In this document: positions 7,988 to 59,678 of the stretch, piece after piece
Position numbering within the stretch: position 1 is the first letter of the stretch
Layout: each line of letters begins with the position of its first letter
The notes under the pieces: model-generated
The model's input: the letters and a program-made list of their open reading frames with translations, nothing else
The model's database searches: none
Told to the model about the DNA's origin: nothing
Program-made: the position numbers and the translations under genes
DNA from: Candidatus Auribacterota bacterium
GTDB lineage: Bacteria; Auribacterota; Tritonobacteria; UBA1439
Direction of reading: 5' to 3'
DNA: 64,000 bases
Assembly: GCA_026392015.1 (NCBI GenBank)
Contig: JAPLCW010000174.1
Span: 1 to 64,000, forward strand

Positions 7988-8125
7988 CTTGAGCCAGAAT
8001 TCAGAAGACAGAATACAGAATTCAGGAGACAGGAGATAAACGTTTCCTTGAAATGCCGCTATTCTTAATTCTGGATTCTGTATTCTGTCTTTTCCATTCT
8101 GGCTCCTGACTTCTGACTACCTGAG
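7988..8125. repeat. MITE-like palindromic element, copy A
   Basis: Arms are made of degenerate CAGAATN / CAGGAGN heptamers around a core AGGAGATAAACGTTTCCTTGAAATG. The same element occurs inverted at ~34216-34372 and ~40478-40650. Confidence 0.8.
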
Positions 8126-8241
8126 TAGTTACCTTGCTTCTATTGAAAGCCCGGGATACTCGGGTGAAAAAGCTATTGCGTGAGGTGATGCTTCTGCTAC
8201 AATGAAACCGCATGAAAGAAGCGGGCAGGAGGGCATGAATA

Positions 8242-9393: not shown

Positions 9394-9433
9394 GCATCTT
9401 CCGGACAGCGGATCCACTACTGATGAGGATCTT

Positions 9434-10315
9434 ATGACAGGAGCACCGAGGATCGGGATAATCGGCGGGAGCGGGCTCTACCAGATGGCGGAGATAGGGG
9501 GTCTGCGCGAGGAGCGCGTCGAGACTCCATTCGGCTCGCCCTCTGATCGCTATACCCTTGGGACATTGGCCGGACGGGAGGTTGTTTTCCTCCCCCGACA
9601 CGGCCCAGGACACCGCCTCATGCCGACGGATATCAACTACCGCGCGAATATTTTCGGGATGAAGAAGCTCGGCGTGGGCTGGATTATCGCGGTGAGCGCC
9701 GTGGGGAGCCTCCAGGAGCGTTACAGGCCGCTCGACATCGTCATCGTGGATCAGTTTTTCGATAGAACAAGCAAGAGACACTCAACCTTTTTCGAAGAGG
9801 GGCTCGTGGCGCACATCGCGTTCGCCGATCCCATCTGCGGGGCGCTCGCGCGCATCCTCTACGACGCCGGGAAGGAGATTGGCGCTCCCCTGCACATGGG
9901 AGGCACGTACGTAAATATGGAAGGTCCCGCCTTTTCGACAAAAGCGGAGGCTGCGGTATATCGCGCCATGGGGCTCGACCTCATCGGCATGACCAATCTC
10001 ACCGAGGCGAAACTCGCGCGTGAGGCGGAGATCTGCTATGCGACGATCGCGATGGTCACCGACTACGACTGCTGGCATCCCGAGCATGAGGCGGTAACTG
10101 TGGAGACCGTAGTCCGCAACCTCCGGAAGAACGCTGCGACTGCCACACAGTTGATCCTGAAGGCGATCAAGAAAGTGCCCCATCGGCAAAACTGCCCCTG
10201 CGCCAGCGCCCTTGCGGCAGCAATTATCACACAGCGCGACACGATACCGCCTGAAATCGTACTGAAGCTCCAGCCTCTCGTGGGGAAGTATTTGATGCCC
10301 GGGCAAAAAGCCTGA
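9434..10315 (+). CDS. mtnP: S-methyl-5'-thioadenosine phosphorylase (PNP family 2)
   Basis: RIGIIGGSGLY, FLPRHGPGH and INYRANIF motifs, then the CWHPEHEAVTVE region typical of MTAP. ATG at 9434 chosen by homology (the ORF-track start at 9323 adds a non-homologous leader). Confidence 0.85.
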   Translation: MTGAPRIGIIGGSGLYQMAEIGGLREERVETPFGSPSDRYTLGTLAGREVVFLPRHGPGHRLMPTDINYRANIFGMKKLGVGWIIAVSAVGSLQERYRPLDIVIVDQFFDRTSKRHSTFFEEGLVAHIAFADPICGALARILYDAGKEIGAPLHMGGTYVNMEGPAFSTKAEAAVYRAMGLDLIGMTNLTEAKLAREAEICYATIAMVTDYDCWHPEHEAVTVETVVRNLRKNAATATQLILKAIKKVPHRQNCPCASALAAAIITQRDTIPPEIVLKLQPLVGKYLMPGQKA

Positions 10316-11002: not shown

Positions 11003-11770
11003 TTAATAATTGCAGTCACTGAGAATACCGGATCACAGTTTTATTCCTGTAGAACCGATTCCCCAAATGACCTCAAATATAATACTAGTATACTACATAT
11101 ATCCGGCATTTCCCATGTAAAGATCGGTCTCTGTGTAATGGGTCACTTATGGATACCCCCCAAGACTGACCCATTACGCTTAAAGATATGGCGGGCAGCC
11201 TATCTCCCCGGAAGGCAATTGAGCTTTTTCGCAGCATTAAGCTTGTTGAAGTATGGTTCGATACTATTGATGGACGGCGGATTTGTCTTCCGCGGATCAC
11301 GATGCCCGAACCTGACCATCAAGTAGTTCTGGAGCAGTTCAAATGGAATTTGCCCGAACAACCACCTCCGCGCATTTATACACGGAGGGAAGGTCATGTA
11401 AGAAATGTGTGGGAGATTCGAAGTTAAAATGCCCTCCTTTCCTATGAAAGCTGGGCTTCTATGCAAAATCTGCGAAAGTCGGGTTAGGATTGAACACGCA
11501 AGGTGAAGTCTTGCGAGTCGAAGTCCCTCCCCCATCCCCGCTCCCATCACTCCTATTGGATAGTGAACTTCGCTCTCACGTCGAGGAACGCATCCGCCCG
11601 CCCTGTAATCGGCTTCAAGGGGTCGAAGAACGCGAACGCCGCGACGACCTCGTACTACCCGACGGGCTTCACGTTCGGCCGGAGAGCGAGGGCGTCGAGC
11701 ATGAACCCGTCCGGGAGGATAACGACCGGCTCCGCGAGGGGCAGCATGGGGCAAATTGCCCAAGTTACGA

Positions 11771-12333
11771 CTAATCGCCCCCTCGAACGGCCCGCACTAA
11801 ATGAACATCGGTCTTATGGCCGAGGTACGTCACCCAGCCGTAGTCGAAAAGCGCCAGAAAAGCGTCGCCGCCAGTGGCAGGGGGGGGAGTCGTAGTAGAG
11901 CACCAATAGCCGCCCGCGCCCGAGACCGTGTCTGGGAAGTACGTTTTGTTGATGTAAGGGAGCCCCTGACCTGCATCGCACACAAACAACGTACTCAGCT
12001 CGTTTACGTTCGGCAAGCGCCAGTCGGTAGAACCGGCGAAGTTCAGCCCCTCCGCCCAGACAATCGCACTCGACCATACGAGTTGACCTCCGGTGTTGCA
12101 ACCGGCGCCCGTTCCGCTCTTCGGCCAGATAAGACCGGTCACCATGTCGACCACGGTGTCACCGTTGTCATAGTAACTGAATGCCTTTCCCTTAGTGGAC
12201 GAGTAACTGCCGTCATCTCCCGTCTGGTACACCGCCGTCTGGCCGGTCTTGAGGACGGCATTGGCGGCAATGGCCATACCGGCCACACCGACCGCGCATA
12301 TCAAACCCAAAACTGCCATCATCAACTTTTTCA
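11771..12333 (-). CDS. Secreted DUF1566 (Lcl C-terminal domain) protein
   Basis: Signal peptide MKKLMMAVLGL...AIA, then KTGQTAVYQTGDDG...DWRLPNVNEL...VRAVRGGD. Start placed at the MKK ATG with an AGGA RBS. Confidence 0.65.
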
Positions 12334-12394
12334 TCTTTTCAACCATCCTTTCATGTTTCACCGCTAAAATTACGTCAAATTGCCCAAGTTACGA

Positions 12395-13234
12395 CTAATC
12401 GCCCCCTCGAACGGCCCGCACATAATAGCTACGGGTCTTTTCGATGCTGCCCACGAAGCCGAGGTAGAAGTTCGGGCTCAAAGCGTACGTCGTACGGTTC
12501 GGCTCCGTAGTAGAGGACCAATAACCGCTCGTTGTCGTGTCTGGGAAGTACGTCTTGTTGATGCGAGGGGCCCCCCCATCGAGCACAAGCAACGTCTGCA
12601 GCTCAGTTTTGTTCGGCAAGCGCCAGTCGGTAGAACCGGCGAAGTTCAGCCCCTCCGCCCAGACAATCGCACTCGACCATACGAGTTGACCATTTGAATT
12701 GCATCCTGCGCCAGTTCCACTCGAGGGCCATATCAAACCTGTGACGTTGTCCATCACCGTATCCGTGCTGGAATCCCAGGCATAACTAAATGCCTTACCC
12801 TTGCTGGTAGAGTAAGTGCCGTCATCTCCCGTCTGGTACACCGCCGTCTGGCCGGTCTTAAAAACAGTATTATAAGGAGCCGCAAAAGTGCCTGTCTGAA
12901 CTCCCCATCTTCCTGACTGCGTGCTGAAGAACTTCGTGCCACTCGCTACTTTGTCGGCAGTCGCGTCGCACAGGTCAAACTTCGTTTTGACATCATCGCC
13001 AATCTGTTTCGCGCTCTTCATGGTACCGACCGTTGGCCCTGATGCGGGTCCCTGAAAACTGGTCTGCACTGTGAGCGCTGTGCCGCTAGTGAGATAATCG
13101 TACAGGTTTTGGAGCGTGTACATCCCGCTCCCCTCCGAAGGCGCTCCCGGAGAGTCAAGGCTCCCCGCAACGGCTATCCCGGCCATCGCGCCCGCGAACA
13201 TTAGACTTAAAACTGCTATCGTCAACTTTTTCAT
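12395..13234 (-). CDS. Secreted DUF1566 protein, tandem paralog with an extra ~90-aa N-terminal region
   Basis: Signal peptide MKKLTIAVLSL, then the same KTGQTAVYQTGDDG...DWRLPNKTEL...VRAVRGGD core. The last 9 codons plus 19 nt of 3' UTR are identical to 11771-12333. Confidence 0.65.
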   Translation of the reverse strand: MKKLTIAVLSLMFAGAMAGIAVAGSLDSPGAPSEGSGMYTLQNLYDYLTSGTALTVQTSFQGPASGPTVGTMKSAKQIGDDVKTKFDLCDATADKVASGTKFFSTQSGRWGVQTGTFAAPYNTVFKTGQTAVYQTGDDGTYSTSKGKAFSYAWDSSTDTVMDNVTGLIWPSSGTGAGCNSNGQLVWSSAIVWAEGLNFAGSTDWRLPNKTELQTLLVLDGGAPRINKTYFPDTTTSGYWSSTTEPNRTTYALSPNFYLGFVGSIEKTRSYYVRAVRGGD

Positions 13235-13446
13235 CTGTCCAACCATCCTTTCATTTTTTGCTTCCCCATTCCATGCTGCCGAAGTGGTATATCACTCTAT
13301 CGGGAATCATACTATCACCCATGGGGGGGATGTCCAACCAAATTAAATGTCCCCTTGATCACTCCCTCTCCCCCCATTCATGAGGCTGTCTCAAAACTCG
13401 TTACAAAACGATGGCAATAGCACTCTTGTCCAAAATAGCGTTTTTG

Positions 13447-14818
13447 GACAGCATCCCACATCATGCGATGTTTAACCATGATGCCAAAATGCAGTAGAAA
13501 AGCCAATTTGGGGGCATTTCCCCAGCTTTTGATCTCTGGAACCGAACCGGTAGTATCTTGGACAGCATTTTGAGGCCTCAAAATGAATCATGCAGAGATT
13601 TGTCTTAAACGGCCTATTTCTCTCACAATACGCGCATGACAATCACCAAACTAATTTATTTTGGACAGATGTGTGGCAATAGGATAAAATAAAGCCGGAG
13701 GCGAGCCAAAGGAGAGAGATATGAGATATGCGCAGATTACCAGCAGATGTACCTATTGCCACCTGCGTTGGAGAATTTTGTACCGCGAGATCATCCAGCG
13801 ATGTTGCTACGGGAGTTTGTGGATTCTCTGGACTTACTTGGATTGGGTTTTAAGGCCCGGGAAGCAGAGGAGGGACGTCCATATTATGGAGAAAGTTTAT
13901 TGCTGAAGGTATGGTTATATGGATACTTCAACGGGATACGAAGTAGTCGGAAACTTGAAAAAGAGAACAAGGAGAATATAGGGCTTATCTGGTTAACGGG
14001 GATGCATTATCCAGATCATAACACACTGTGGCGGTTTTACCAGAGGAACCAGAAGGCGCTCAAGAGTCTGTTTAAAGAAGCGGTACAAATAGCAGTGAAG
14101 GGTGGGTTAGTAAGGATGGTAGTCAACGCGGTAGACGGGACAAAGATCATGGCAGATGTGTCACAGAGGAGCGGGATACATCGAAAGAAGTTGGAAGAGA
14201 TATTACGGAGGATAGACGAGTCAGTGGATGAAGTATGTAGCGAGATAGAGAGAGCGGAAGAAGATGAAGCCGGAGAGGAATATGGGTTGCCTCTGGAGCT
14301 TCAGGAGAGGAAGAAGCTCCGGGCATTCATTGAGGGAGAACTAAAGGAGCTAAAAGAGAGAGGGACATCTAATCTGAGCAAGACGGACAAGGATGCTCGA
14401 ATGATGAAGGGGAATGAGTGGATACGGGCTATCTGGGGGACTCCCGCAAAATATGTTGCAGTATCAATGCGGAATGCTCCTGTCCATACCTGCCCATGGC
14501 TCGATGCCTCAAACGCCAGCAGCATCGCGCCAAACATTTTACTCAACATACCACAATAACCGCTTTTTTTCATATCGCGCATTCTCCCCATGTGCCATTA
14601 CAGTGTCTGAAAATATGACAGCTCGTGTTCAGCCGCGTCCGTTCCCGCCTCTGCGGAATGTTCTCCTATTTAATCATGAGCGTCTCCCCGGCGATCGAGC
14701 CCATCACTTTCCCCTTGTTGTCCTGGAGAGCATTTTCTCATGGGGCTTGACCGATTAGCCTCGCTTCAACCCTCACAGATAAATAGACTAGCAAAAACCG
14801 TACCAAACAGTATGGATC
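13447..14818. mobile_element. Degraded IS5/IS1182-family insertion sequence (putative)
   Basis: TTTTGGACAG motif at 13447 and 13657, and its reverse complement CTGTCCAAAA at 14809, bracket a truncated transposase ORF. Boundaries are uncertain. Confidence 0.35.
13747..14559 (+). pseudogene. IS5/IS1182-family transposase, C-terminally truncated
   Basis: N-terminal InsH/DUF772-like region (LLLKVWLYGYFNGIRSSRKLEKE). It reads through DKDARMMKGNE and then leaves the family frame. No DDE catalytic region is present. Confidence 0.6.
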
Positions 14819-15038: not shown

Positions 15039-16154
15039 TCAACGCCGAGAGAGGAGCATTCTCAGGAGCACGGAAGGGCGAAGGAGGAGCAGGGTGCGCG
15101 TGTTACACTCGTGCGTACAGACGCAGCGCTTCTCACGGCGCAACGCGACGAATTCCCTCGCCCGGGCGCCGGCCAGCAGTTTTTTAAGGTCAAACCCGAA
15201 ATCGCGGACATTCCCGAGAGAGCGATTGAACATCAGCTCGCACGGGAACACTTCTCCATCCTCGGAGAGGACTACCTCACGCTCCCCGGCCAGGCAGGGG
15301 GCGATGAACTTCCCCTCCCTCCAGACACGGGCGATGTAGCGAGTGCGGGCTTTGTTCATCCTGTCGCGCACGCGGCGCTTCAGGGCACGGGCGGAGTGGA
15401 GGGCCCTCTCGCCCTTCCCGCGATAGAGCGTGTCCAGTTTTTCGCAGAGCGCCGTGTAGATCTCCGGCGTCACATCAGGGGGCCGCGCCGCGGGGCCGCC
15501 GCCTCGCCAGAGGTTGAGTGTGTGCGAATCGGGATGAATCTCCTTGAACACAAAGTCGATGAGCCGGTCCAGTTCCCCCTGGTTCTCGCGCATGAGCGTT
15601 GTGATGACACCCACGTACAGATTCCCATACCTGCGCTGAAGATCCTGAGCGCCTGCGAGCGTGCGCAGCGCCCGCGCGTGGATGCCCGAGACGCCGCGGA
15701 GGCTGTCGTGGAGCTCGCCGAAGCCGTCCAGTGAGACCGAGAGACTGCACGAGAGATTTGGCGAGATCGCGCAGATGCGCTCTACCGCGCCGAGGATCTC
15801 CTCCGTCCTCAGACCGTTCGTCGGAATGGAGATATTACCGAACGATGTCTCCCTGAAATAGGCCTCCACGACCTCCGGCAGATCCCTCCGCAAGAACGGC
15901 TCACCGCCGCTCAGGAGGAGAAAAGGGAGCTTGCCGATGGAATGGGCGATCTTACGGATTTCATCCAGGGTGAGCTCGCGGGTGCGCCTGTTTACCGTAT
16001 AGAAGCAATGAGCGCAGCGCGCATCGCACGCAGCGGTGACAAAGTGCGTGAGCTGGAAGAGACCGCGGCCCGGAAGAAACGCCTTTCCAATCATGCCGAT
16101 GGCTCCCGTGAGCGGGTTAACAGACTTAAAATCCTTTTTCACATCCCTCCTCAC
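15039..16154 (-). CDS. Radical SAM protein with C-terminal Cys-rich (SPASM/twitch-like) region
   Basis: CDARCAHC (CxxxCxxC) cluster near the N-terminus, and a GGEPFL SAM-binding motif. C-terminal cysteines (PCLAGE, FPCELM, CVCTHEC). Confidence 0.75.
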   Translation of the reverse strand: MRRDVKKDFKSVNPLTGAIGMIGKAFLPGRGLFQLTHFVTAACDARCAHCFYTVNRRTRELTLDEIRKIAHSIGKLPFLLLSGGEPFLRRDLPEVVEAYFRETSFGNISIPTNGLRTEEILGAVERICAISPNLSCSLSVSLDGFGELHDSLRGVSGIHARALRTLAGAQDLQRRYGNLYVGVITTLMRENQGELDRLIDFVFKEIHPDSHTLNLWRGGGPAARPPDVTPEIYTALCEKLDTLYRGKGERALHSARALKRRVRDRMNKARTRYIARVWREGKFIAPCLAGEREVVLSEDGEVFPCELMFNRSLGNVRDFGFDLKKLLAGARAREFVALRREKRCVCTHECNTRTLLLLRPSVLLRMLLSRR

Positions 16155-16803
16155 CTCCCCCTTCGCGGGGGGAGGGAATTATATTTATTTTGCCACACAA
16201 AATGCAGGAGAAGCATTAACCTGATCTATTCACCAGCTTTTAATGTTTTAACCGCGGATTAAGCGGATTACGCTGATTTGCATTGTTTAATCCGCCCAAT
16301 CCGCGAAATCTGCGGTTTCATATGTTTGGCCGTTAAAATTGCTCTTTTATTCGTCTGCTGAATAATCCAGGCTAAGCTGCTCTATTCATCAACCCGAGAT
16401 TAGCATTATCCGAATATTCGCAACATATTGCATTGCAGGGGATTGATCCTTCGGCAAGCTCAGGACAAGTTTTATCAAGCCCGTTCTCAACCCGGGTTCG
16501 ATAAATCAAACCCCTACATTACGCAGATGAATAGTCCAAGCTAAACCTTATCCCCATCCTTCCTCGCCAAAGACGAGCGAGCGTGAGGCTTGTCCGCCTT
16601 GGGCGGAGGAAGGGTCAAGGCGGGGTGTTTGTTGCGAAGTATGCCATTCTTGCACTTCGACTACGCTCAGTGCAAATTCGAGCAGAAATCCAGATTCCAT
16701 ACAGGATCCCCGCCTGCCTGCGCGAAGCCGCTTCGGCATAGGCAGGCTTCCTCGGGGATGACAATTGAACTGAACACCACCACAAGACTGACGTATTACT
16801 ACA

Positions 16804-17676
16804 CTATTTTTTCCCATAGCCGACACAACTTCGCCCTTTGAGTATCCCGGCCGTGCGGCAGATCTCGCCCACAGCTATGAGTGGTAACAAAACTATAAAC
16901 TGAACGAACCGCCGGGTAAACAGATATCGCCTGAAGAGAACTAAGAGGCGCGGCATGAAGAAGAGGAGGACCGGGTGACGCAGGAGCACACTCCCCCGCA
17001 GGGTAAATCGGGTGCGCGCGTAGACGAAGGCAAGCCCGCAGCGATATTGGTTCCGGAAAAAAGAAACGAGTCCCCGGCGCGCAGGAGCATGTGTCACGAT
17101 GATCGCGGGGTCGAAGATGAGGGTTCCGCCGCGCGCGGCGATCTCCGCATTGAATGTGGTGTCTTCCCCCGCTGTCGTCGGGATGAAATCAATCCCACGA
17201 ATGGCCTCCCGCCTGTACGCAACATTCAATGTCGGGATTGTTGAGACGGGTCCCGGCCTGGCCGATGGAATGAATTCCGAAAAGTTGGACAGGTACTCGA
17301 GTCTCCCGGAAATTCCGTTCGATCCGTCGAGGATGGCGCCCCCGACGCCGGCGGCGTCAGGATTGCGCGTGAACACCTGCTGGATTTTTTCCAGCCAATC
17401 ATCATAAGGTATCGCGTCCGCGTCGGTGAATGCGATGATATCCCCCTGGGCGCGCGCTTTTCCCACATTTCGCGCTTCTCCCGCGGAGAGAGGCATGGCG
17501 GAAGCGACGACCTTGACCGGGAAGCGCGCAGCGACTTCTCGCGAGCCATCCTCGGAGGCCCCATCCACCACGATGACGTCAAGCGGTTTCACCGTCTGCC
17601 GTCCGATCGCCTCGAGGCACGCCCCAATCGTCCCCGCCGCATTCCGGCAGGGGATCACAACACTGACGGTGTTCAT
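16804..17676 (-). CDS. Family 2 glycosyltransferase (GT-A fold)
   Basis: VSVVIPCRNAAGTIGACLEAI, DVIVVDGASEDGS and FTDADAIP (DxD) motifs. Start trimmed to MNTVSV; the ORF-track N-terminus (YRIQNTE)n is only translation of the heptamer tract. Confidence 0.75.
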   Translation of the reverse strand: MNTVSVVIPCRNAAGTIGACLEAIGRQTVKPLDVIVVDGASEDGSREVAARFPVKVVASAMPLSAGEARNVGKARAQGDIIAFTDADAIPYDDWLEKIQQVFTRNPDAAGVGGAILDGSNGISGRLEYLSNFSEFIPSARPGPVSTIPTLNVAYRREAIRGIDFIPTTAGEDTTFNAEIAARGGTLIFDPAIIVTHAPARRGLVSFFRNQYRCGLAFVYARTRFTLRGSVLLRHPVLLFFMPRLLVLFRRYLFTRRFVQFIVLLPLIAVGEICRTAGILKGRSCVGYGKK

Positions 17677-17723
17677 GCTGAAAAACCCTACCATATCTGT
17701 TGCTTTTTCGATATCCCTTTGTA

Positions 17724-17857
17724 TATTCTGTATTCTGTATTCTGTATTCTGTATTCTGTATTCTGTATTCTGTATTCTGTATTCTGTATTCTGTATTCTG
17801 TATTCTGTATTCTGTATTCTGTATTCTGTATTCTGTATTCTGTATTCTGTATTCTGT
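17724..17857. repeat. Perfect heptanucleotide tandem tract (TATTCTG)n, ~19 copies
   Basis: Read directly in the sequence. It lies in the intergenic region between the divergent GT2 (minus) and GT39-like (plus) genes. Confidence 0.9.
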
Positions 17858-17870
17858 ATACGCCCTGCCA

Positions 17871-19427
17871 TTGAGAGTTAGATCAGTTGTTGCGATCCTC
17901 CTCCTCGCATTCGGTCTGAGGCTTATTTTCGTATTCTTTCCCGCGGAGCTGAAACCGTTCTCCGACATGCAGGAGTACCATGAGAAGGCATGCATGATCC
18001 TCGATACGGGCAGCTACGGGCCTTCGTCCCGGCCCCCGCTCTATCCGGTCTTTCTCGCGTCCGTATATCGCATCTTCGGTATCCATTCCTTCGCTGTGAG
18101 GCTAATCCAGGCGCTGATGGGCACCGCCGTGTGCCTCTTCACATATTTAATCGCGCTCCGGTTGTGGGGGGAGCGCGCTGCGTGGATGAGCGGGCTCCTT
18201 GTCGCCTGCTACCCAAGCCTCGTCGTGTACACTGGCCTCCTCATGTCGGAGAATCTTTTCATTTTCCTGCTCATGGCCTCGCTCTGGATCCTCCTCTGTC
18301 CGGGGCGGAGGGGAGCTTTTGCCTGCGTCGCCGCAGGCATACTCCTCGGCGTTGCCTGCCTGACCAGATCAATTCTCATCGGATTTATCCCGATCGCGGC
18401 GCTCTGGCTGTGGCGGAAACGCAGCGGGAGAGAGGGGATGGTATGCCTTCTCGGAGCGCTCCTTGCCATTGCCCCCTGGACAATAAGAAACTATCGCTAC
18501 TATCAGCGGTTCATCCCGGTAGATCTCTACGGCGGCTATAACTTCCTTATCGGAAATACCCCGTACGCCACAGGGCGGCAGGAGCTCGGGACGCTGCGAA
18601 CACTCGAGGCCGAATATTGGAAGAACTGGTATATAACACCCGAGAAAAAAGGAGAGGGCGCGCCTCCGGCTAATGAATGGATTATGATCATAGATCCGGA
18701 CGGTTCCGCGCTGGGTTACCGGGAGGGGATTAAGTTCATAGCAGCCCATCCATTGAAATTCCTGATCCTTGGCATGAGAAAAATGGGTAACCTGTACGAT
18801 CTCGAGATCAGAGACCTCTCATGGGCGTATTCCAAAAACTACTTCGGGGAGGTGCCCCGGCTGATTCTCATTCCGGTGGCGGCGGCAATCATTGTCGCCT
18901 TTCCATTGCTCGCGATCCTTGCCCTCTGCGGCATACTCTGCAACGGAAAGGAAACATATGATGTAAGGGGACAGTCTCAGAGTAGGAAAAACAACCCCCT
19001 CCTCGCCCTCCCCTCGGCAAGCTCCCTTCGACTTCGCTCAGGATCTTCGACAGGACAAGCTCCCCTTCGCAGGGGGAGGGGATATGATTCGAGCCCCTCA
19101 GAAACTGAACAATTGTCACATAATAACGGCGGCGCATGGGCGCTGCTCATCTTTACCCTGCTCTATTTTTCCGCCGCGTGCTTCCTCACCTTCGGCGAAA
19201 GCAGGTTCCACCTCCCCCTCGTACCGGTCCTGGCACTGTTCGCCGGCGCTCTCGCGACATGCGCACCGCACCCCCTGTCCTCTGAGCCGGTCCGGCTGAA
19301 GAGATTGCTTCTTGTCTTACTGCTCGGCCTCCTCCTTATAGACTGGGGACTGAGCCTTATGGAGAATCGGCAGCGTCTCGGCATCGTGCTCGCCCCGGGA
19401 GGCAATCTCACGGAGATCAGCTATTGA
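17871..19427 (+). CDS. Polytopic membrane glycosyltransferase, GT39/PMT_2 (ArnT-like) family
   Basis: Multiple TM helices with the family pattern (PLYPVFLASVYRIFG...LIQALMGTAVCLFTYLIALRLWG). Start tentatively at the in-frame TTG at 17871, just downstream of the repeat tract. An in-frame repeat-derived insert sits at ~18985-19095. Confidence 0.6.
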   Translation: MRVRSVVAILLLAFGLRLIFVFFPAELKPFSDMQEYHEKACMILDTGSYGPSSRPPLYPVFLASVYRIFGIHSFAVRLIQALMGTAVCLFTYLIALRLWGERAAWMSGLLVACYPSLVVYTGLLMSENLFIFLLMASLWILLCPGRRGAFACVAAGILLGVACLTRSILIGFIPIAALWLWRKRSGREGMVCLLGALLAIAPWTIRNYRYYQRFIPVDLYGGYNFLIGNTPYATGRQELGTLRTLEAEYWKNWYITPEKKGEGAPPANEWIMIIDPDGSALGYREGIKFIAAHPLKFLILGMRKMGNLYDLEIRDLSWAYSKNYFGEVPRLILIPVAAAIIVAFPLLAILALCGILCNGKETYDVRGQSQSRKNNPLLALPSASSLRLRSGSSTGQAPLRRGRGYDSSPSETEQLSHNNGGAWALLIFTLLYFSAACFLTFGESRFHLPLVPVLALFAGALATCAPHPLSSEPVRLKRLLLVLLLGLLLIDWGLSLMENRQRLGIVLAPGGNLTEISY

Positions 19428-19560
19428 CCTCTCCGCCGACCAGAAACTAATGCATTAGTTACAGGCGGATGTGATTCTTTTTTCTCGCAGGGGGGCCTTA
19501 ACCTGGTCTATTCATCAACTCGAGATCAGGGCGATCTCCATATCTGATAACACATTGAAT

Positions 19561-19696
19561 TGTAGGGGCTTGATCCTTCGGCAAGGTCCCTTCGACTGAG
19601 TTTATACTGAGTGTAGCCGAAGTGCTCAGGGTCTTCGACAGGACAAGTTTTATCAAGCCCGTTTTTAACGCGGGTTCGATGAATCGAACCCCTACA
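19561..19696. repeat. Palindromic element family TGTAGGGG...CCCCTACA (representative copy)
   Basis: TGTAGGGGCTTGATCC...GGACAAGTTTTATCAAGCCC...GGGTTCGATGAATCGAACCCCTACA. Other copies at ~7166-7226, 16435-16519, 30238-30311 and 30714-30793, and a fragment inside the CDS at ~18985-19095. Confidence 0.8.
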
Positions 19697-20124
19697 ATAG
19701 GGAGATGAATAAAAGAGCTATTTTAACAGCCCACCATATGTAACCGCAGATTACGCGCCTGCCTGCCGGCAGGGATTGGGCGGATTACACAATGCGAATC
19801 CGCGTAATCCGCGGTTAGAACATTAGGTTCATGTCCAAAAAAGTTGCCCATTCATACGAGGAGAGTAGTCATCCCCGCGAAAGCGGGGATCCAGAAATGC
19901 AGCTTTCTAAGCTGGATTCCTGCTTCGCATAATAGAGGGATTACGCGAGGTGATGTCAGCGGGGTGCCGGTGCAAAAAAGTATAAAATCATACAATCGCA
20001 TATTTCCAGTTGACTTCCGGAAGCGGATAGCGTATCTTGAGCGGGTTTGCTGGGCATATATCTGCCGAGTCAACTCGTTCAGGCGCCGGCGCGTTGTTAC
20101 GGTGCCAGCGAAAGGGGAGACATT

Positions 20125-20757
20125 ATGGTACAGTTGAGATCGTACGTCTTCATCGACAGTCTCCAGCCGCAGCTCGCCTCCTTCGTCGCCTCCGCAGCCA
20201 AGGGCTTCATGCCGGTTGCGGGAATGGCGTCGCTCTACGTGGAGGTGGCTCCCGGCATGGAGATCATCCGCGCGCTCGATGTGGCGCTCAAGGCGACCTC
20301 CTGCCGACCTGCGGTACAGGTAGTGGAGAGGGCCTATGGCGTCCTCGAGGTGCACTCAGAGGATAAGGGGCAGGTCATCAACGCAGGCAGGGCGATTCTC
20401 GAACATCTCGGCCTGAAGGAGGAGGACCGACTCAAGCCGAAGGTAGTCGCCACGCAGATCATCCGGCGGATCAGTCCCTACCAGTCGCAGCTCATCAACA
20501 AGGGGCGCGACGGCTCGATGCTCCTCGGAGAGCAGACGCTTTACATAATGGAAACAGATCCGGCAGCTTACGTAACGATTGCGGCCAACGAGGCGGAGAA
20601 AGCCTCGCTTGTGACGCTCATCGAAGTGCGGCCGGTCGGCCGTTTTGGCCGTCTCTACCTCGGCGGTGAGGAGAGGGACATCATGGTGGGAAGCGAGGCA
20701 GCCCTGAAGGCAATCGAGGCCATCACGGGCAAGGAACACGGCGGTAAAGGCGAATAA
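20125..20757 (+). CDS. BMC-domain-like shell protein, possibly permuted/tandem (EutL/PduB-like); assignment tentative
   Basis: RBS AAAGGGGAGA precedes the ATG. Segments GMASLYVEVAPGMEIIRALDVALKAT...VQVVERAYGVLEVHSED and LVTLIEVRPVGRFGRLYLGGEERDIMVGSEAALKAIEAI resemble BMC-fold strands. It is first gene of the microcompartment operon. Confidence 0.4.
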   Translation: MVQLRSYVFIDSLQPQLASFVASAAKGFMPVAGMASLYVEVAPGMEIIRALDVALKATSCRPAVQVVERAYGVLEVHSEDKGQVINAGRAILEHLGLKEEDRLKPKVVATQIIRRISPYQSQLINKGRDGSMLLGEQTLYIMETDPAAYVTIAANEAEKASLVTLIEVRPVGRFGRLYLGGEERDIMVGSEAALKAIEAITGKEHGGKGE

Positions 20758-20826
20758 CCACAGTGTAAGATTTAAAGTGTAAAGTGTAAGGTTGAAAAGG
20801 AAAGCGTTAGAGAAAGGGGGTAGGCG

Positions 20827-21117
20827 ATGTCAGAGGCACTGGGAATGATCGAAACGAGAGGGTTTGCAGCCATGGTTGAGGCATCGGATGCCATGGTCAA
20901 GGCCGCAAAGGTCGAGCTGGTGAGCTACGAGAAGATCGGCGGCGGTTACGTCACCGCTATCGTCCGCGGCGATGTGGCGGCCGTGCGCGCGGCGGTTGAA
21001 GCAGGGGCGCGTGGCGCCGAGAAGGTGGGAGAGCTAGTATCCGTACACGTCATACCGAGACCGCACGTCAATGTCGATGCGGTGCTGCCGCTCGGAAGGC
21101 CCACCGGGAAGGAATGA
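20827..21117 (+). CDS. BMC-H hexameric shell protein (PduA/EutM/CcmK-like)
   Basis: Canonical [29 protein letters not shown]...[13 protein letters not shown]...VHVIPRPH. Confidence 0.9.
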
Positions 21118-21222
21118 CAAATACCAAGTGACAAATGACAGAACATATTTGTTTTGTCATTTAGATTTTGTCATTTGTCATTCATTTAGTGTCTATTGTG
21201 GTTGGTGGACAAGGAGGATTCG

Positions 21223-21522
21223 ATGCTCCTGGGGAAAGTGACGGGAACCCTCGTCTCCACACAGAAGGATGAGAAACTCAGAGGTCTCAAGTTCTTCGTT
21301 GTGGAGAAACTCGATATGCAGGGGAAGCCGACGGGTACGTTCGTTATCGCGGCTGATTCTGTGGGGGCGGGCGTGGGAGAGGTTGTGATATACGTCTCCG
21401 GAAGTTCCGCCCGCTACACCGCCTCTACGGAGGGGAAGCCGGCGGACGCGACCATCATCGGGATCGTCGACACGTGGGACCTCAACGGGAAGGCGCAGTA
21501 CCAAAAATCAGAGGAAAGGTAA
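21223..21522 (+). CDS. BMC-P pentameric vertex protein (EutN/PduN/CcmL family)
   Basis: MLLGKVTGTLVSTQKDEKLRGLKFFVV...GAGVGEVVIYVSGSSAR. AGGAGG RBS lies 8 nt upstream of the ATG at 21223. Confidence 0.85.
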   Translation: MLLGKVTGTLVSTQKDEKLRGLKFFVVEKLDMQGKPTGTFVIAADSVGAGVGEVVIYVSGSSARYTASTEGKPADATIIGIVDTWDLNGKAQYQKSEER

Positions 21523-21653
21523 TGCCTCAGCCACAGGGTGATCATACCCCCCACCCTGACCCTCCCCTCAAAGGGGGGAGGGGAATAAGGTTTGATTGCA
21601 TTCCGAGACTGAAGCATTGCGAGGAACGAGCCTGACGGCTCATGGAGTAGCGC

Positions 21654-23084
21654 ATGAATCTCACCGAGGCTCAGATTGCGGCCATAGTGGAAAATGTCAT
21701 CAACCGGCTCTCCACTGAGGGGGCTTTTGAGAAAGCCGCCGAGGGGGGGACGGCTGCAGGGGATGGTGTCTTCTCAGACATCGAATCAGCCCTCAGGGCT
21801 GCGGAACTCGCCCAGCGCGAGCTCGATGCACAGACACTCGATATGCGTCGCAAGGCCATCGCCGTTCTCAGGCGTACTGTCGAGGAAAATGTCCAAACTC
21901 TCTCCCGCATGGCAATCGAGGAAACCGGCATCGGTCGCTACGAAGACAAGATAAAGAAGAACCTCTGCGTCGCCCAGCTCACGCCGGGGACCGAAGACCT
22001 GCAACCGATCGCCTTCACCGGCGACCATGGGCTCACGCTCATCGAGCGCGCCCCCTATGGGGTGATCGGGTCGATCACTCCCTGCACCAACCCTTCTGAG
22101 ACGATCATCTGCAATGCAATTGGGATGATCGCCGGCGGGAACTCGGTCGTTTTCAACCCTCACCCCGGCGCCAAAGAGACATCCGCCTACACCATCAGGC
22201 TCCTCAACAAGGCGATCGTCGCCGTCGGGGGCCCCAGGAACCTGCTCTGCAGTATCGCCGATCCGACGCAGGAAACGGCTCAAGAGATGATGAAGCATCC
22301 GAAGGTCAAGCTCCTGGTAGTCACCGGGGGCCCGGGAGTGGTGAAGGCCGCCATGAACAGCGGCAAGAAGGCGATCTGCGCGGGTCCGGGAAACCCGCCG
22401 GTCGTGGTCGACGAGACCGCGGATATCGCGAAGGCCGGAAAAGATATCGTCGCGGGAGCATCCCTCGACAACAATATCATCTGCATAGACGAGAAGGAGG
22501 CGATCGTCGTCGACTCCGTTGCGGACGCGCTCAAGAGCGAAATGAAAAAACACGGAGTCCATGAACTCACGGGCCGCGACATCGGCAGGATCACGGATCT
22601 GGTGATTAAGGAGCGGCATCCCGCGCCGCATGAGAGCGTCGCGAACAAGAAATGGGTCGGAAAGGATGCGGCGGTCATCCTCAAGGAACTGGGAATCAGC
22701 GCGCCGCCGGACCTGCGATTGATCCTTGTCGAGGTCGAGCGTGACCACCCGCTGCTCTGGACAGAGCAGCTAATGCCGGTCTTCCCCCTCACGAGGGTCC
22801 GAAGTTCCGACGAGGGGATCGATCTCGCCGTCGAGATGGAGCACGGTTTTCGTCACACGGCGTCGATGTTCTCGAGAAATATCGAGAAGCTCTCCAGGAT
22901 GGCACGGATGATCAACTGTTCCATCTTTGTGAAGAATGGCCCGAACTATGCGGGGCTCGGCTTGGGCGGGGAGGGCTACACCTCGTTCAGTATCGCAAGC
23001 CCGACCGGCGAGGGTCTTACCTCGGCGAAGGACTTCACGCGCGTGCGCCGATGCACCCTGGTGGATTACTTCCGGATCGTCTGA
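21654..23084 (+). CDS. CoA-acylating aldehyde dehydrogenase (PduP/EutE-like) with N-terminal amphipathic helix
   Basis: ALDH fold with the catalytic Cys in DNNIICIDEKEA, and GPGNPPVVVDETAD. N-terminus MNLTEAQIAAIVENVINRL has the character of an encapsulation peptide. Confidence 0.85.
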   Translation: MNLTEAQIAAIVENVINRLSTEGAFEKAAEGGTAAGDGVFSDIESALRAAELAQRELDAQTLDMRRKAIAVLRRTVEENVQTLSRMAIEETGIGRYEDKIKKNLCVAQLTPGTEDLQPIAFTGDHGLTLIERAPYGVIGSITPCTNPSETIICNAIGMIAGGNSVVFNPHPGAKETSAYTIRLLNKAIVAVGGPRNLLCSIADPTQETAQEMMKHPKVKLLVVTGGPGVVKAAMNSGKKAICAGPGNPPVVVDETADIAKAGKDIVAGASLDNNIICIDEKEAIVVDSVADALKSEMKKHGVHELTGRDIGRITDLVIKERHPAPHESVANKKWVGKDAAVILKELGISAPPDLRLILVEVERDHPLLWTEQLMPVFPLTRVRSSDEGIDLAVEMEHGFRHTASMFSRNIEKLSRMARMINCSIFVKNGPNYAGLGLGGEGYTSFSIASPTGEGLTSAKDFTRVRRCTLVDYFRIV

Positions 23085-23107
23085 CGCCGCGGCAGGTTCC
23101 ACTTAAA

Positions 23108-23460
23108 CCACTGGGGACACTGAAGCAACATCAATAGATTCAAGGTGGCTATATTTTTTAGATTCCCTTGCATTTTGTGTGCGTGCACTGCATTCTCCTC
23201 CCCCCTTGAGGGGGAGGAAGAAGGTGGGGGGTATTGCAAAGGCAGATATGCTACCCATTACATTGGATGGAGTTACAATGAGTATCCGTTATCCATTCCT
23301 CACCCCCACCCTTACCCTCCCCCTTCGGAGGGGGGGGATAAGAAATTTGCCCACACAAAGTGGAAGAGAACCCTTTTTAAATCAGCGTAATCCGCGGTTC
23401 GAACCGTTATCGTAACGAAGTTAGTCTCTGTTTCAGTGCGCTCAGTGTCCTCAGTGGTTA
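23108..23460. repeat. MITE-like element with terminal inverted repeats, inside the BMC operon
   Basis: AACCACTGGGGACACTGAAGC at the left end and its reverse complement GCGCTCAGTGTCCTCAGTGGTTA at the right end. The interior holds GC-rich UUCG-loop hairpins and a CCGCGGATT motif. Confidence 0.6.
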
Positions 23461-23484
23461 ATCAACAAATAGTGCAGTGCGTCG

Positions 23485-24828
23485 GTGGTGCAATACATTA
23501 TGAGCGTGACCCTCGTTGAAAAAGTCAAACGCGCCGGTGTCGTGGGCGCCGGCGGAGCCGGGTTCCCCACCTGGAAAAAGATCGCCGCCCGCGTCGACTA
23601 CGTGGTCGCCAACGGCGCCGAGTGCGAACCTCTCCTCCATAACGACCAGTACATCATGTCTCGTGAGTCCGAGCGGGTCGTCAAAGGCGTAGAGCTTGTT
23701 ATGCAGGCAACGGGCGCAAAGAAGGGCATCATCGCGCTCAAAGAAAAATATCCGGATGCCGTGGCGGCGTTCCGCCACACCCTGAAAAAGAAGGAACATC
23801 TCACCCTCTCTTTTCTTCCGAACAGCTACCCGGCCGGGGATGAGTTCGTCCTCGTGTACGAGACCACGGGGCGCGTGATACCGGAGTCGGGACTCCCGCT
23901 CGATGTGGGAGTGGTCAACAGCAACGTGGAGACGTTCAAGAATGTCGCGGATGCGGACGAGGGAGTTCCGGTGACCGAGCGATACGTCACCGTCACCGGA
24001 GCGGTGCGTCATCCCGTCGTTCTCCAGGCGCCGATCGGCACGAGTTTTGCGGATCTTGTTTCCGCTGCCGGGGGCGCTGCCGTTGAGGAATATGCGCTCA
24101 TGATGGGAGGAATCATGATGGGAAAGCTCTCCTATGACCTCTCCCAGCCGGTGACCAAAACCACGGGCGCCATCATCCTTCTCCCGACCGACCATTTGCT
24201 CGTCAGGAGACGCACGGTTCCGTTCATGAGCAGTCTCCACGTGACGAGGGAGTTCTGCTGCCAGTGCACCCTCTGCACGCTCATCTGTCCTCGTTACCTG
24301 CTCGGACATGAATTGTACCCGCACCTGATCATGCGCTCGGTGCTGTTCGGCCTGCCCTTTCCCGAGCGCGGCGGGGTTACCTCCGCGCACCTCTGCTGCG
24401 AGTGTGAGCTCTGCGGGCTCTACATCTGCCCGATGAACCTCCCGATCGCGCGCATCAACGGCAATATCAAACGAAACCTGGAAGCCCTCGGGTGGGAAGC
24501 GCAGAAAAAGTGCGAATCCCCGAAACCGCGCCTTCTTCGGGAGCAGTCCCGCATTCTCGCGGACCGTCTCGTCTATCGCCTCGGCCTCAGCGCGTACAAA
24601 GGGAAGGTCCCGTTCCAGGAAAAGCAGCTTCAGCCGAGGCGGGTGAAAATACCGCTCAAGCAGAACGCGGGGGCCCCCGCGACTCCGTGTGTGAAGGTGG
24701 GCCAGAGGGTAAAACGGGGACAGGTCATCGGAGAGATCCCCGAGGGGAAACTGGGCGCCCGGCATCACGCAAGCATCAGCGGCGTGGTAAAAGAGGTGAA
24801 AGACTTTATTCTCATCGAAGCCGCATAG
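23485..24828 (+). CDS. RnfC/PduS-like flavin- and Fe-S-binding oxidoreductase
   Basis: GVVGAGGAGFPTWKK nucleotide-binding motif and two Cys clusters (CCQCTLCTLICP, CCECELCGLYICP). The ORF-track start is a GTG; an ATG at 23500 is an alternative. Confidence 0.75.
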   Translation: MVQYIMSVTLVEKVKRAGVVGAGGAGFPTWKKIAARVDYVVANGAECEPLLHNDQYIMSRESERVVKGVELVMQATGAKKGIIALKEKYPDAVAAFRHTLKKKEHLTLSFLPNSYPAGDEFVLVYETTGRVIPESGLPLDVGVVNSNVETFKNVADADEGVPVTERYVTVTGAVRHPVVLQAPIGTSFADLVSAAGGAAVEEYALMMGGIMMGKLSYDLSQPVTKTTGAIILLPTDHLLVRRRTVPFMSSLHVTREFCCQCTLCTLICPRYLLGHELYPHLIMRSVLFGLPFPERGGVTSAHLCCECELCGLYICPMNLPIARINGNIKRNLEALGWEAQKKCESPKPRLLREQSRILADRLVYRLGLSAYKGKVPFQEKQLQPRRVKIPLKQNAGAPATPCVKVGQRVKRGQVIGEIPEGKLGARHHASISGVVKEVKDFILIEAA

Positions 24829-24880
24829 TATGCGTGACGGCGTATCGGCGTGATAAATGACGTGCCAAAGAGCACATAAA

Positions 24881-24953
24881 GGATTACAGCGCGTAACTGC
24901 GGATTGGATGGACTACCGTAAAGAATCCGCCTAATCCGCGCAATCCGCGGTTA
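24881..24953. repeat. Palindromic element family TTAACCGCGGATTACGC (representative copy)
   Basis: Units of GGATTN3GCG with inverted symmetry and ends like TTAACCGCGGATT / AATCCGCGGTTAA. Further copies at ~16250-16320, 19741-19818, 23385-23412, 25828-25860, 40425-40455, 41685-41730, 41975-42009 and 63855-63985. Confidence 0.8.
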
Positions 24954-24978
24954 AAACATTAAAGGTGTCTGAACAGTC

Positions 24979-25527
24979 ATGGAACCGGCAATAGGATTAA
25001 TCGAGTTTAACAGCATCGCTTCCGGCATCCTCGCGACAGACGCCATGGCCAAGAAGTCCAGTGTCACCGTGGTCGATTCGCGGAGCATCTGCCCGGGGAA
25101 ATACATCGTGCTGATCACGGGCGATGTCGAAGCTGTCCAGCAGTCGCTTGACGCGGGACTCCAGGCCGGTGGAGGAGCAGTAACTGAGAAACTCCTCCTG
25201 CCGAACGTCCACGAGCAGGTGGTGCCGGCTCTCATCGCGGCAACTCCTGTTCACAAGATAGAGGCGCTGGGAGTCATCGAGACATTCAACGCGCCCGCCT
25301 GTATCGTTGCCGCGGATGCCGCGGCAAAGGCGACCGAGGTCCAACTCGTGCTCATCAGGGTGGGGAACGGCCTCGGGGGAAAATCATTTGTCGTCATCAC
25401 GGGCGAGTGGGTGAACGTGGAGGCCGCGGTTGCGGCGGGCATCGAGCGGATCAAGGGAATGGGAGCGCTTGTGCGGCGGATCGTAATCCCGAACCCGCAT
25501 GTCGATTTGAACAGCTTTATTCTGTAA
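24979..25527 (+). CDS. Tandem-BMC-domain shell protein (BMC-T, PduT-like)
   Basis: Two BMC domains (AIGLIEFNSIASGILATDAMAKKSSV... and ALGVIETFNAPACIVAADAAAKATEV...). Length and order match PduT. Confidence 0.85.
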   Translation: MEPAIGLIEFNSIASGILATDAMAKKSSVTVVDSRSICPGKYIVLITGDVEAVQQSLDAGLQAGGGAVTEKLLLPNVHEQVVPALIAATPVHKIEALGVIETFNAPACIVAADAAAKATEVQLVLIRVGNGLGGKSFVVITGEWVNVEAAVAAGIERIKGMGALVRRIVIPNPHVDLNSFIL

Positions 25528-25737
25528 AAAGATGACAAAGCATATCTAACCTGGATTATTCACGAGGCGCCCGTAGTAAAAGGGACATAACCACTGAGGC
25601 AATGAATATACTGAATGTTTGGACGCAGATTTGCGCAGATGAACGCAGATTAACAAAAGAAGCAGATTGAACCCTTGAGGTTTTAACCGCAAGCTGTATT
25701 TGTATCTGCGTGTTCTGTTGGGCGGATTAAAGAGGCA

Positions 25738-25826
25738 CATGCAACCACGGATGAACACGGATGAACACCGAACAGCAGAAGGAGCATTTGAACCGTGTTA
25801 ATCCGTGTTCATCCGTGGTTCAAAAT
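25738..25826. repeat. Palindromic element family CACGGATGAACAC / GTGTTCATCCGTG (representative copy)
   Basis: AACCACGGATGAACACGGATGAACAC...GTGTTAATCCGTGTTCATCCGTGGTT. Related copies at ~30470-30500, 30607-30640, 51127-51150, 53990-54140 and 60150-60220. Confidence 0.75.
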
Positions 25827-25882
25827 TTTTCAATCCGCGCAATCCGCGGTTAAGACTTTAATATTTCGTCTTTTATCCAATT

Positions 25883-34176: not shown

Positions 34177-34215
34177 CTTCCGGTATTCTGCAGTGATATA
34201 TCTGGTAACCACTCA

Positions 34216-34372
34216 GATAGTCAGGATGCAGAAGCCAGGAGCCAGAATGGAAAAGCAAGAATCCAGAATACAGAATTAAGAATAACGGCATTTCAAGGAA
34301 ACGTTTATCTCCTGTCTCCTGAATTCTGACTCCTGAATTCTGACTCCTGAATTCTGGCTTCTAAATTCTTGC
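34216..34372. repeat. MITE-like palindromic element, copy B (inverted relative to copy A)
   Basis: Same core GGAAACGTTTATCTCCT with CTGAATTCTGACTCCTG heptamer arms. Confidence 0.8.
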
Positions 34373-34469
34373 TCCTCGCAGTCACGACATCGCCCTATTT
34401 ATTGAGTGAAAATTGTGGCTTCTGCGCTTATAATCTCTAGATATCAACTTTTTAGGGCGGTGATATACT

Positions 34470-35660: not shown

Positions 35661-35760
35661 AAATCAACCGGTTACTCCCCGGGTTCGGGAATAGCCCACC
35701 CTGCAGGCGGGACTTTAGGCCCGCATGCCGGGCACATGAGAGGATGCGCGTGCGGTAGCC

Positions 35761-40428: not shown

Positions 40429-40477
40429 CCGCGGATTGGGCGGATGAAAACATTAAATCTTATTAACTGCTCGGGTG

Positions 40478-40650
40478 GTCAGAAGACAGAATCCAGGAGT
40501 CAGAATCCAGAATGGAAAAGCAAGAATACAGAATCCGGAATACAGAATTAAGAATAACGACATTTCAAGGAAACGTTTATCTCCTGTCTCCTGAATTCTG
40601 TATTCTGTCTTCTGAATTCTGGCTCCTGACTCCTGAATTCTGACTCCTGA
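40478..40650. repeat. MITE-like palindromic element, copy C
   Basis: Same core and heptamer arms as copies A and B. Confidence 0.8.
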
Positions 40651-40675
40651 GCAGTTACAAATCTTAAAGGATAAT

Positions 40676-47542: not shown

Positions 47543-47706
47543 GCTGTAAGCAATAAGTATTTTGTTTGTAGCTTATGGCTTATCACTTACCGCTTTCCAT
47601 TGTGTAGCAGTATGCAGTTTTCCTGGCTACTAACCACTGCCCCGCTGCTTCTGTTTCTTTGTAGCGTTATGCAGTTTCCCTAACCCCTAGCTACTAACTA
47701 CTGCAG

Positions 47707-59671: not shown

Positions 59672-59678
59672 TGCGCTT

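Follow-up and report, generated by a model that had tools for sequence, protein, structure and literature searches.

The adhesin genes hmw1A and hmw2A of Haemophilus influenzae are preceded by a tandem heptanucleotide repeat, (ATCTTTC/TGAAAGA)n, located past the promoter and about 70-110 nt before the start codon. The (ATCTTTC)n tract is transcribed in the 5' untranslated region (5'-UTR), and its copy number, from 11 to about 38, varies between strains and tunes expression gradually, in inverse proportion (PMC12721329, PMC2651432). The subject here is a tract built on another 7-nt unit: a perfect array of TATTCTG between two divergent glycosyltransferase genes, one of family GT2 and one of the GT39/PMT_2 family (GT-C type). 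It lies within 64,000 nt of DNA (the window) from Candidatus Auribacterota. The hmw1A/hmw2A repeat is the closest working model for the tract. The setting differs: the hmw adhesins are accessory proteins of a host-adapted pathogen, whereas the tract adjoins a conserved GT2/GT-C pair in a free-living, uncultivated anaerobe.

Other described repeats share parts of this arrangement. The Geobacter metallireducens "class 3" sets (consensus MTYCTGA) have counterparts in three palindromic elements found elsewhere in the window, which like them are intergenic, multicopy, and paired on opposite strands; no function has been shown for the Geobacter sets (PMC2700814). The tract, read as ATTCTGT, matches this consensus at 6/7 positions, and the window elements contain ATTCTGA and CTCCTGA. 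In contrast to class 3, however, the tract is a solo direct array without an inverted partner, and it runs far beyond five units.

The cyanobacterial short tandemly repeated repetitive (STRR) sequences and the TAACTGA arrays of Beggiatoaceae and Bacteroidetes are likewise intergenic tandem heptamers whose role is not known; they often lie just upstream of start codons, reach 43 copies, and are scattered across phyla (PMC4679880). Their units differ from that of the tract, and they number hundreds per genome, as against one long perfect array in 64 kb, together with its degenerate palindromic relatives. In heterocystous cyanobacteria, STRR units include CCCCAGT, TTGGTCA, and CAACAGT; the tract, with its unit TATTCTG and its host Ca. 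Auribacterota, is not an STRR.

Two further systems offer parallels in position or in gene content. According to the summary in PMC4679880, the (AGAT)n repeat of Moraxella catarrhalis uspA2 separates the promoter from the start codon, and expression depends on how many copies it has, as is proposed for the tract; there, a tetranucleotide is repeated, the product is a surface protein of a pathogen, and the effect has been put to experimental test. In the Salmonella and phage P22 gtr systems, the GT2 enzyme GtrB and the polytopic membrane transferase GtrC modify a surface glycan, and the operon is phase-variable (PMC2909390). That switch is epigenetic, dependent on DNA methylation and free of repeats, and searches with the GT2 protein of the window established no homology to GtrB.

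The tract itself is unambiguous in sequence. Tandem Repeats Finder (TRF) reports period 7, 19.4 copies, 100% matches, no indels, and a score of 272 (Table 1). An exact regular-expression search finds 19 complete TATTCTG units at 17724-17856 (133 nt), and perfect periodicity continues to a total of 136 nt, thereby occupying 136 of the 194 nt that separate the GT2 and PMT_2 genes. Read on the minus strand, the tract is (CAGAATA)n. These searches and the gene calls agree with the first-pass annotation in placing the array between divergent GT2 and GT39/PMT-like genes; the location it gave was right, but the end and length (17724-17857, 134 bp) were 1-2 nt off. It had also set aside the open reading frame (ORF) translations through the tract, (YRIQNTE)n and (YSVFCIL)n, the latter written there as (FCILYSV)n, as artefacts. 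All six frames of the unit are free of stop codons, so these translations are indeed mere read-through. (A coding N-terminal extension was considered and rejected: the tract has no stops in any frame, is out of frame in the close relative, and lies outside the starts placed by NCBI.)

Within the 64-kb window, the only perfect tandem repeats of period 4-11 with at least three copies are the tract and (GAAA)3 at 7043. Chance cannot explain the tract. Its 19 copies are perfect, and the expansion is therefore recent. The RNA has essentially no structure, being unpaired in the centroid structure (z −1.15 relative to shuffles); as DNA the tract is also essentially unstructured (−0.7 kcal/mol), and an Rfam search of it gave no match at E≤1. 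One limit attaches to the count. The source, a 70.8-kb NCBI contig from a metagenome-assembled genome (MAG) of Candidatus Aureabacteria (Auribacterota), is probably a short-read assembly, and since a 136-nt perfect array is near the span limit of reads and k-mers, 19 is perhaps not the true, or not the only, copy number.

The tract is lineage-specific. Distant syntenic relatives (L002 and L003-L008), whose PMT_2 proteins share 50-53% identity with that of the window, keep the gene order, with the radical S-adenosylmethionine (radical-SAM) and GT2 genes divergent from PMT_2 and the bacterial microcompartment (BMC) genes; the GT2/PMT_2 intergenic regions of L002 (99 nt) and L003 (116 nt) contain no heptamer array. 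A closer relative, of about 90% identity, is represented by contigs from three Joint Genome Institute (JGI) metagenomes (L130-L132). Its nucleotide identity to the window is 90% in GT2, 92% in the radical-SAM gene, and 84% in PMT_2. At the same site it reads …CCTTTGTA(TATTCTG)4ACTTCCGCATTCCCTGCACCATTGCGATAGAGATATG…: four copies, then two degenerate units and a unique spacer. The two arrays are orthologous, with 19.4 copies here and 4 there. Scans of metagenome contigs with the left flank plus tract and with the right flank gave no match, in a collection that evidently lacks the samples of the JGI relative.

Thus the tract shows two marks of a contingency locus: it is a long perfect repeat capable of slipped-strand mispairing, and its copy number differs between close relatives. 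The first-pass annotation had named invariant copy number across related genomes as an observation that would count against a phase-variable tract. Copy number is not invariant: four in the ~90% relative and none in the distant ones. In mutational behaviour the tract matches a contingency locus; its role as a gene "switch" is hypothetical.

A second assembly of the same strain differs from the window directly beside the tract, at its right junction. Both of its contigs come from Logan run SRR20698648. One (L133) was found through the partial ORF predicted for a k=31 contig that breaks off 30 nt into the tract. It agrees with window 16720-17753 (1034 nt) at 100% identity and ends 30 nt (k−1) into the repeat. 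In the other (L129), the first 30 nt are tract; a 37-nt spacer, ACTTCCTCATTCCCTGTGCCATTGCGATAAAAATATG, comes next, after which the contig follows window 17859-19528 at 100% identity (1670 nt). (Exact-protein look-ups in the contig index, with GT2 as 290, 355, or 296 aa, with EutN, and with the NCBI GT39 protein, gave no match.) Because these contigs break 30 nt inside the tract, the tract must break the k=31 graph, which requires at least five copies in that sample.

The 37-nt spacer is orthologous to that of the relative and terminates in an in-frame ATG. In the window, …TATTCTG-TA passes straight into TACGCC (17859) with no spacer; this allele has thereby lost the only upstream in-frame ATG, and it retains the TTG start. 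On this comparison, the spacer-bearing form is the ancestral one. The spacer length is 5x7+2, and the window tract ends with the partial unit TA, so the two alleles differ by a whole number of units. This in-register relation, expected by chance one time in seven, is suggestive. Microhomology that might have guided a 37-nt deletion is limited to 1 nt shared at the breakpoints. Since junction k-mers are not something that a de Bruijn assembler can make up, there should be reads of both junctions, from different samples or subpopulations. Together, the 4-versus-19 difference and the junction difference indicate that the tract expanded recently and that the locus is structurally polymorphic. The tract is, in short, a real, unstable microsatellite.

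What might such a tract do? Its position relative to conserved elements offers a guide. Both annotated start codons lie outside it, and NCBI places the same starts: the GT2 ATG is at 17676, 47 nt to the left of the tract, and the PMT_2 TTG is at 17871, 11 nt past the end of periodicity. The 47-nt left flank is nearly identical in the window and the ~90% relative, with three substitutions. It holds a putative PMT_2 promoter, whose −35 (TTGCTT) and −10 (TATATT) hexamers are both unchanged in the relative; all three substitutions fall inside the 16-nt spacer between them. The last four bases of TATATT are the first four bases of the tract. On the other strand, 12-13 nt before the GT2 start, is a box that reads TATGGTAG in the window, in L130-132, and in L002, and TATGATAG in L003. 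Its consensus, TATGRTAG, is kept even in the distant L002 and L003. Since the ATG within the L002 box is out of frame, the box is probably conserved as a DNA or RNA signal, not as coding sequence, and is possibly the GT2 −10 element.

All of the promoter-like elements conserved between lineages are therefore to the left of the tract. With this geometry, a change in copy number would alter the length of the PMT_2 leader and the DNA upstream of the GT2 promoter, and would leave −35/−10 spacing unaffected. For the tract, the role of an unstructured leader that is transcribed is thus more probable than that of a promoter spacer.

This suggests a model, to which we assign a probability of about one half, in which the tract is a hypermutable leader that modulates PMT_2 expression. 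The promoter positions, transcription of the tract, any effect on expression, and any selective value are inferred. A 4-copy proto-array, present in the common ancestor with the ~90%-identity relative, would have undergone slippage-prone expansion to 19 copies. Placed directly downstream of the likely PMT_2 promoter, with the −10 overlapping its first unit, the tract would most likely be transcribed and give the GT39/PMT_2 mRNA a long 5' leader, (UAUUCUG)n, rich in U and without structure; it would simultaneously lie upstream of the GT2 promoter. It would turn the intergenic region into a mutational hot spot. The strain population would then comprise at least two structures: the tract followed by the 37-nt spacer and ATG; or a tract reaching to 11 nt before the TTG, with spacer and ATG gone. 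The most likely outcome would be that PMT_2 expression varies heritably and by degrees, depending on leader length and on the context of the start site. This would be an effect like that of the H. influenzae repeat, and not an on/off effect through −35/−10 spacing or frame. As an expression rheostat, the tract is plausible but unproven.

Several observations weigh against the leader model. First, the hmw mechanism needs a long 5'-UTR hairpin (formed by the repeats and a G-rich arm) together with RNase III, whereas the tract is unfolded. Second, a strict σ70 promoter and terminator scan of 17500-18000 called nothing. The scan would miss the putative PMT_2 promoter because its −35 matches consensus at only 3/6 positions; we only infer this promoter, from that partial match and from conservation. 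Third, the relative has four copies in all three JGI samples, and the comparison of 4 with 19.4 was made on assembled contigs. Fourth, the window allele might be translated normally from its TTG; the relative's own PMT_2 ATG is two codons upstream of the window TTG position. Fifth, the GT2/PMT_2 pair belongs to a conserved syntenic core and is not accessory, which is atypical for contingency genes.

The remaining objections come from other genomes. A scan for (TATTCTG)3, with one genome per species, found at least 120 loci in many phyla. Among the matches listed, the long arrays adjoin unrelated housekeeping genes, such as those for a cytidine deaminase, a methyladenine glycosylase, MgsA, and an ABC transporter. 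In viral contigs TATTCTG gave 44 matches, and composition-matched control heptamers gave 5, 19, and 16. Arrays of control heptamers being common, such tracts can arise and persist without a switch function. The TATTCTG unit is enriched, not unique, and its arrays mark no particular gene class. Two candidate generalisations were accordingly dropped. A tie between TATTCTG arrays and glycan genes elsewhere was rejected in view of the unrelated neighbours among the matches listed. A single family behind the shared unit across phyla is not proven, the enrichment over controls (5-19 versus 44) being only 2-9 fold.

Some features of the listed arrays (L009-L128) can be recorded in their own right. 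Read in the TATTCTG direction, the right-hand gene is on the opposite strand in 67 cases and on the same strand in 33, and among these matches its stop codon is often 4-20 nt from the array; CAGAAUA arrays, in the mRNA sense, thus tend to follow stop codons. The divergent context seen in the window is the rarest class among the matches listed.

These surveys bear on the alternative that the tract is a neutral microsatellite: a 4-copy proto-array that grew by replication slippage in a tolerant spot, with no regulatory role, its polymorphism being noise. We regard this as a tentative but serious possibility. In its favour are the control heptamers, which form arrays too, and the unrelated neighbours of arrays elsewhere. 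Period 7 is, moreover, by far the commonest perfect repeat period in the listed TATTCTG-carrying loci: 895 kb of these contain 79 other perfect period-7 arrays, as against 3-5 for periods 5, 6, 8, and 9. Heptanucleotides were also the most abundant class of long simple repeats in the survey of Mrazek (2007), ascribed there to polymerase slippage, as summarised in PMC4679880. Two observations fit neutrality less well. A tripling of the shared control region of two conserved genes, along with loss of the spacer and ATG, seems unlikely to leave expression unaffected. Furthermore, copy number in the listed arrays is mostly 3-6; the 19.4 copies of the tract exceed all 125 arrays sampled elsewhere, of which the longest internal one has 13.9.

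The heptamer family is also represented within the window, in a different form. The three palindromic elements (about 150-180 nt; Table 1) share an identical 26-nt core, CATTTCAAGGAAACGTTTATCTCCTG, and have CAGAAKN and NNTTCTG arms. The element at 40476-40653 folds into a hairpin of −72.7 kcal/mol (z −7.3); an Rfam search with it returned only sub-threshold matches to plant microRNA hairpins. Two co-oriented elements bracket a GT4/GT4/PMT_2-like cluster (34470-40428). The third, at 7991-8133, is upstream of a gene for a 383-aa protein and is missing at the orthologous site of L130 (5940-6060), where homology (window 8115-8135) starts exactly at GAGTAGTTACC, the point at which the element ends. 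This suggests an insertion or a rearrangement breakpoint. No CAG-phased inverted arm accompanies the tract, either in the left flank of 47 nt or in PMT_2 on the right. Membership in the paired-heptamer class was therefore rejected; the tract is a solo array related to the family.

The family is a wide one. CAGAAKN/MTYCTGA arrays, solo and palindromic, occur in Auribacterota, Chlamydiota, Planctomycetota, Nitrospirota, Desulfuromonadia, and others. A more ambitious version of the leader model would make them a cross-phylum class of intergenic elements, mobile or factor-bound, of which one has been co-opted here as a hypermutable leader that, by expanding and by deletion next to it, produces on and low variants of the GT-C gene; as it stands, this version is unlikely.

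Alternatively, the heptamer could be a binding platform, with a protein that recognises MTYCTGA/CAGAAKN and with 19 copies acting as a high-avidity site or a sponge. Candidates would be a nucleoid protein or global regulator on DNA, or an S1, cold-shock, or Csr-like protein on RNA. The idea gains from the three palindromic elements, which are built from the same heptamer family, and from the inverted CAG-phased arm found within 250 nt upstream of about 24% of the listed TATTCTG arrays (1.2% of control windows). Precedents have been proposed: the paired sets of five MTYCTGA in G. metallireducens as sites for a global regulator (PMC2700814), and the TAACTGA arrays upstream of start codons as targets of post-transcriptional regulators (PMC4679880). 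In neither system, however, has a binding protein been identified. Nor would binding need 19 perfect copies, and the relative has four; perfection points to recent slippage over selection on each unit. Both the DNA and the RNA form of this explanation appear quite unlikely.

A classical on/off phase switch, in which copy number sets the −35/−10 spacing or the reading frame of GT2 or PMT_2, was the form of switching foreseen in the first-pass annotation. The unit length is not a multiple of three, the tract sits in the shared intergenic region of glycan-related genes, and an ORF from a TTG at 17700 is in frame through the tract. The annotation had supposed that copy number changes promoter spacing, and the conserved −35/−10-like hexamers, both to the left of the tract, speak against it; within the units, TATTCT is a weak −10-like hexamer that lacks a −35 to pair with, and the promoter scan was negative. 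It had further allowed for a frame change if a start codon lay inside the tract. Neither does, and a frame switch is therefore not possible. The ORF from the upstream TTG is out of frame with PMT_2 in the close relative, and would require a promoter within the GT2 coding region. A switch of this kind is very doubtful.

Least probable of all is a mis-assembled copy number or tract/gene junction: a 136-nt perfect repeat is near the span limit of 150-nt reads and k=141, and the independent assembly does show a different right junction, but two Logan contigs reach 30 nt into the tract from flanks that are 100% identical, the window's junction k-mers (…TTCTGTATACGCC…) cannot come from spacer-bearing reads and so must exist in reads of their own, and the relative carries a TATTCTG repeat at the same site.

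Table 1. The tract, its neighbours, and related elements, with coordinates as positions in the window.
Feature	Position	Strand	Basis
Perfect heptanucleotide microsatellite, (TATTCTG)19 + TAT	17724..17859	+	TRF, exact regular expression
Junction lacking the 37-nt spacer ACTTCCTCATTCCCTGTGCCATTGCGATAAAAATATG and in-frame ATG	17857..17860	.	L129 compared with the window; relative's spacer orthologous
Putative PMT_2 promoter: −35 TTGCTT 17700-17705, 16-nt spacer, −10 TATATT 17722-17727	17700..17727	+	Read from sequence
Conserved TATGGTAG box, putative GT2 −10 (TATGGT) with a very short GT2 leader	17688..17695	-	Conservation
GT2-family glycosyltransferase gene, 290 aa	16804..17676	-	Pfam PF00535 1.3e-25
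GT39/PMT_2 (GT-C type) glycosyltransferase gene, 518 aa	17871..19427	+	PF13231 2.5e-13, PF02366 5.7e-06
Palindromic heptamer element, CAGAAKN arms, core CATTTCAAGGAAACGTTTATCTCCTG at 8030-8055	7991..8133	-	Same repeat family
Palindromic heptamer element, core 34289-34314, upstream of a GT4 gene	34204..34376	+	
Palindromic heptamer element, core 40561-40586, downstream of a PMT_2-like gene, holds TATTCTG units	40476..40653	+	

The function of both flanking glycosyltransferases is known only at the family level. The GT2 protein is identical to MCX6355773.1 (290 aa) and the PMT_2 protein 100% identical to MCX6355774.1 (518 aa), starts included, and the PMT_2 N-terminus is alignable with those of the relatives. 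NCBIfam matches are all far under the cut-offs. A PDB sequence search returned only generic GT-A matches for GT2 and none for PMT_2. No specific function of the GtrB, ArnC, or ArnT type is claimed in view of these results.

In this neighbourhood, radical-SAM/SPASM is followed by GT2 (minus strand), the divergent PMT_2 (plus strand), and a microcompartment locus. The latter, directly downstream of PMT_2 at 20047-26656, encodes a BMC protein, EutN, an aldehyde dehydrogenase, an RnfC/Nuo51-like protein, and a second BMC protein. This arrangement is kept in the relatives, which add a class II aldolase.

PMT_2 itself has a lineage-specific in-frame insertion of about 55-60 aa (window ~18950-19125) that is missing in the 50%-identity relatives, whose proteins are 445-462 aa long versus 518. 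The insertion DNA (…CGGCAAGCTCCCTTCGACTTCGCTCAGGATCTTCGACAGGACAAGCT…GGGGGAGGGG) is similar both to dispersed repeats in intergenic DNA (16440-16480 and 19575-19660) and to a CCCTCCCC…GGGGAGGG hairpin family with members at 16139, 21546, 23301, and 41888. The gene seems to have taken up a repeat element into its coding sequence. Repeats also surround the gene pair: a 55-nt inverted repeat of 87% identity (16302-16356 / 19703-19757) and a 73-nt direct repeat of 89% identity (16461-16533 / 19639-19711). Both are composed of dispersed elements; in a relative, L001 1336-1408 matches window 16374-16302 at 98.6%.

Two relatives show other irregularities at PMT_2. In L003, 53 nt are duplicated in tandem at 5169-5273 (2.0 copies, 88% identity), and the duplication takes in the start region of PMT_2; to judge from this, the same intergenic spot is repeat-prone in a 53%-identity relative, via a different repeat. 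In L130 (positions 1-160), one of the three JGI contigs, PMT_2 turns into unrelated sequence after about 55 codons; either the contig is chimeric or the gene is really truncated or rearranged.

The region to the left of the pair is arranged differently in L003. Comparison of window 8242-10315 with 15039-17676 shows that the gene for the 383-aa protein and a PNP_UDP_1 gene are inverted and displaced by about 5 kb; in L003, these two genes directly adjoin radical-SAM-GT2 on the same strand. In the window, the DNA that separates them from radical-SAM-GT2 contains duplicated Lcl_C lipoprotein genes (11200-13246) and a DUF772 transposase gene (13747-14559).

Several other repeat families occur in the window. 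A second heptamer family (CTAACTA/CTGACTA units), found at 7580-7606, 47677-47703, and 49895-49921, recalls the TAACTGA repeats of Beggiatoaceae. Tandem 9-mers (AATCCGCGN / CGCGGATTA) with GGTT after them make up another family, scattered over the intergenic regions at 16254-16314, 19797-19826, 23380-23409, 24924-24962, 25831-25861, 41700-41725, 41977-42015, and 63953-63992. A dispersed hairpin family, GGGTTCGATAAATCGAACCCCTACA, is present at 7197-7224, 16491-16518, 19669-19696, and 30284-30311. Separately, a cobalamin riboswitch (RF00174) is found on the minus strand at 59495-59684 (82.8 bits, E 6.9e-19).

Almost all known contingency loci that are driven by repeats belong to host-adapted pathogens. 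The candidate described here comes from Auribacterota, an environmental phylum of the Planctomycetes-Verrucomicrobia-Chlamydiae (PVC) group that consists of uncultivated anaerobic fermenters. One strain presents two structures of the locus, and a sister lineage presents the 4-copy ancestral state. The locus is moreover linked to a heptamer element family that has been noted only in the supplements of genome papers. If the tract is neutral, it would provide a fast-evolving marker for strain tracking, and would also be an assembly-sensitive site in these MAGs. If, instead, the tract tunes the GT-C glycosyltransferase, repeat-mediated surface variation would extend to free-living anaerobes. And if it proves to be a co-opted hypermutable leader, it would constitute a contingency locus outside the host-adapted pathogens, arising perhaps through phage pressure on surface glycans.

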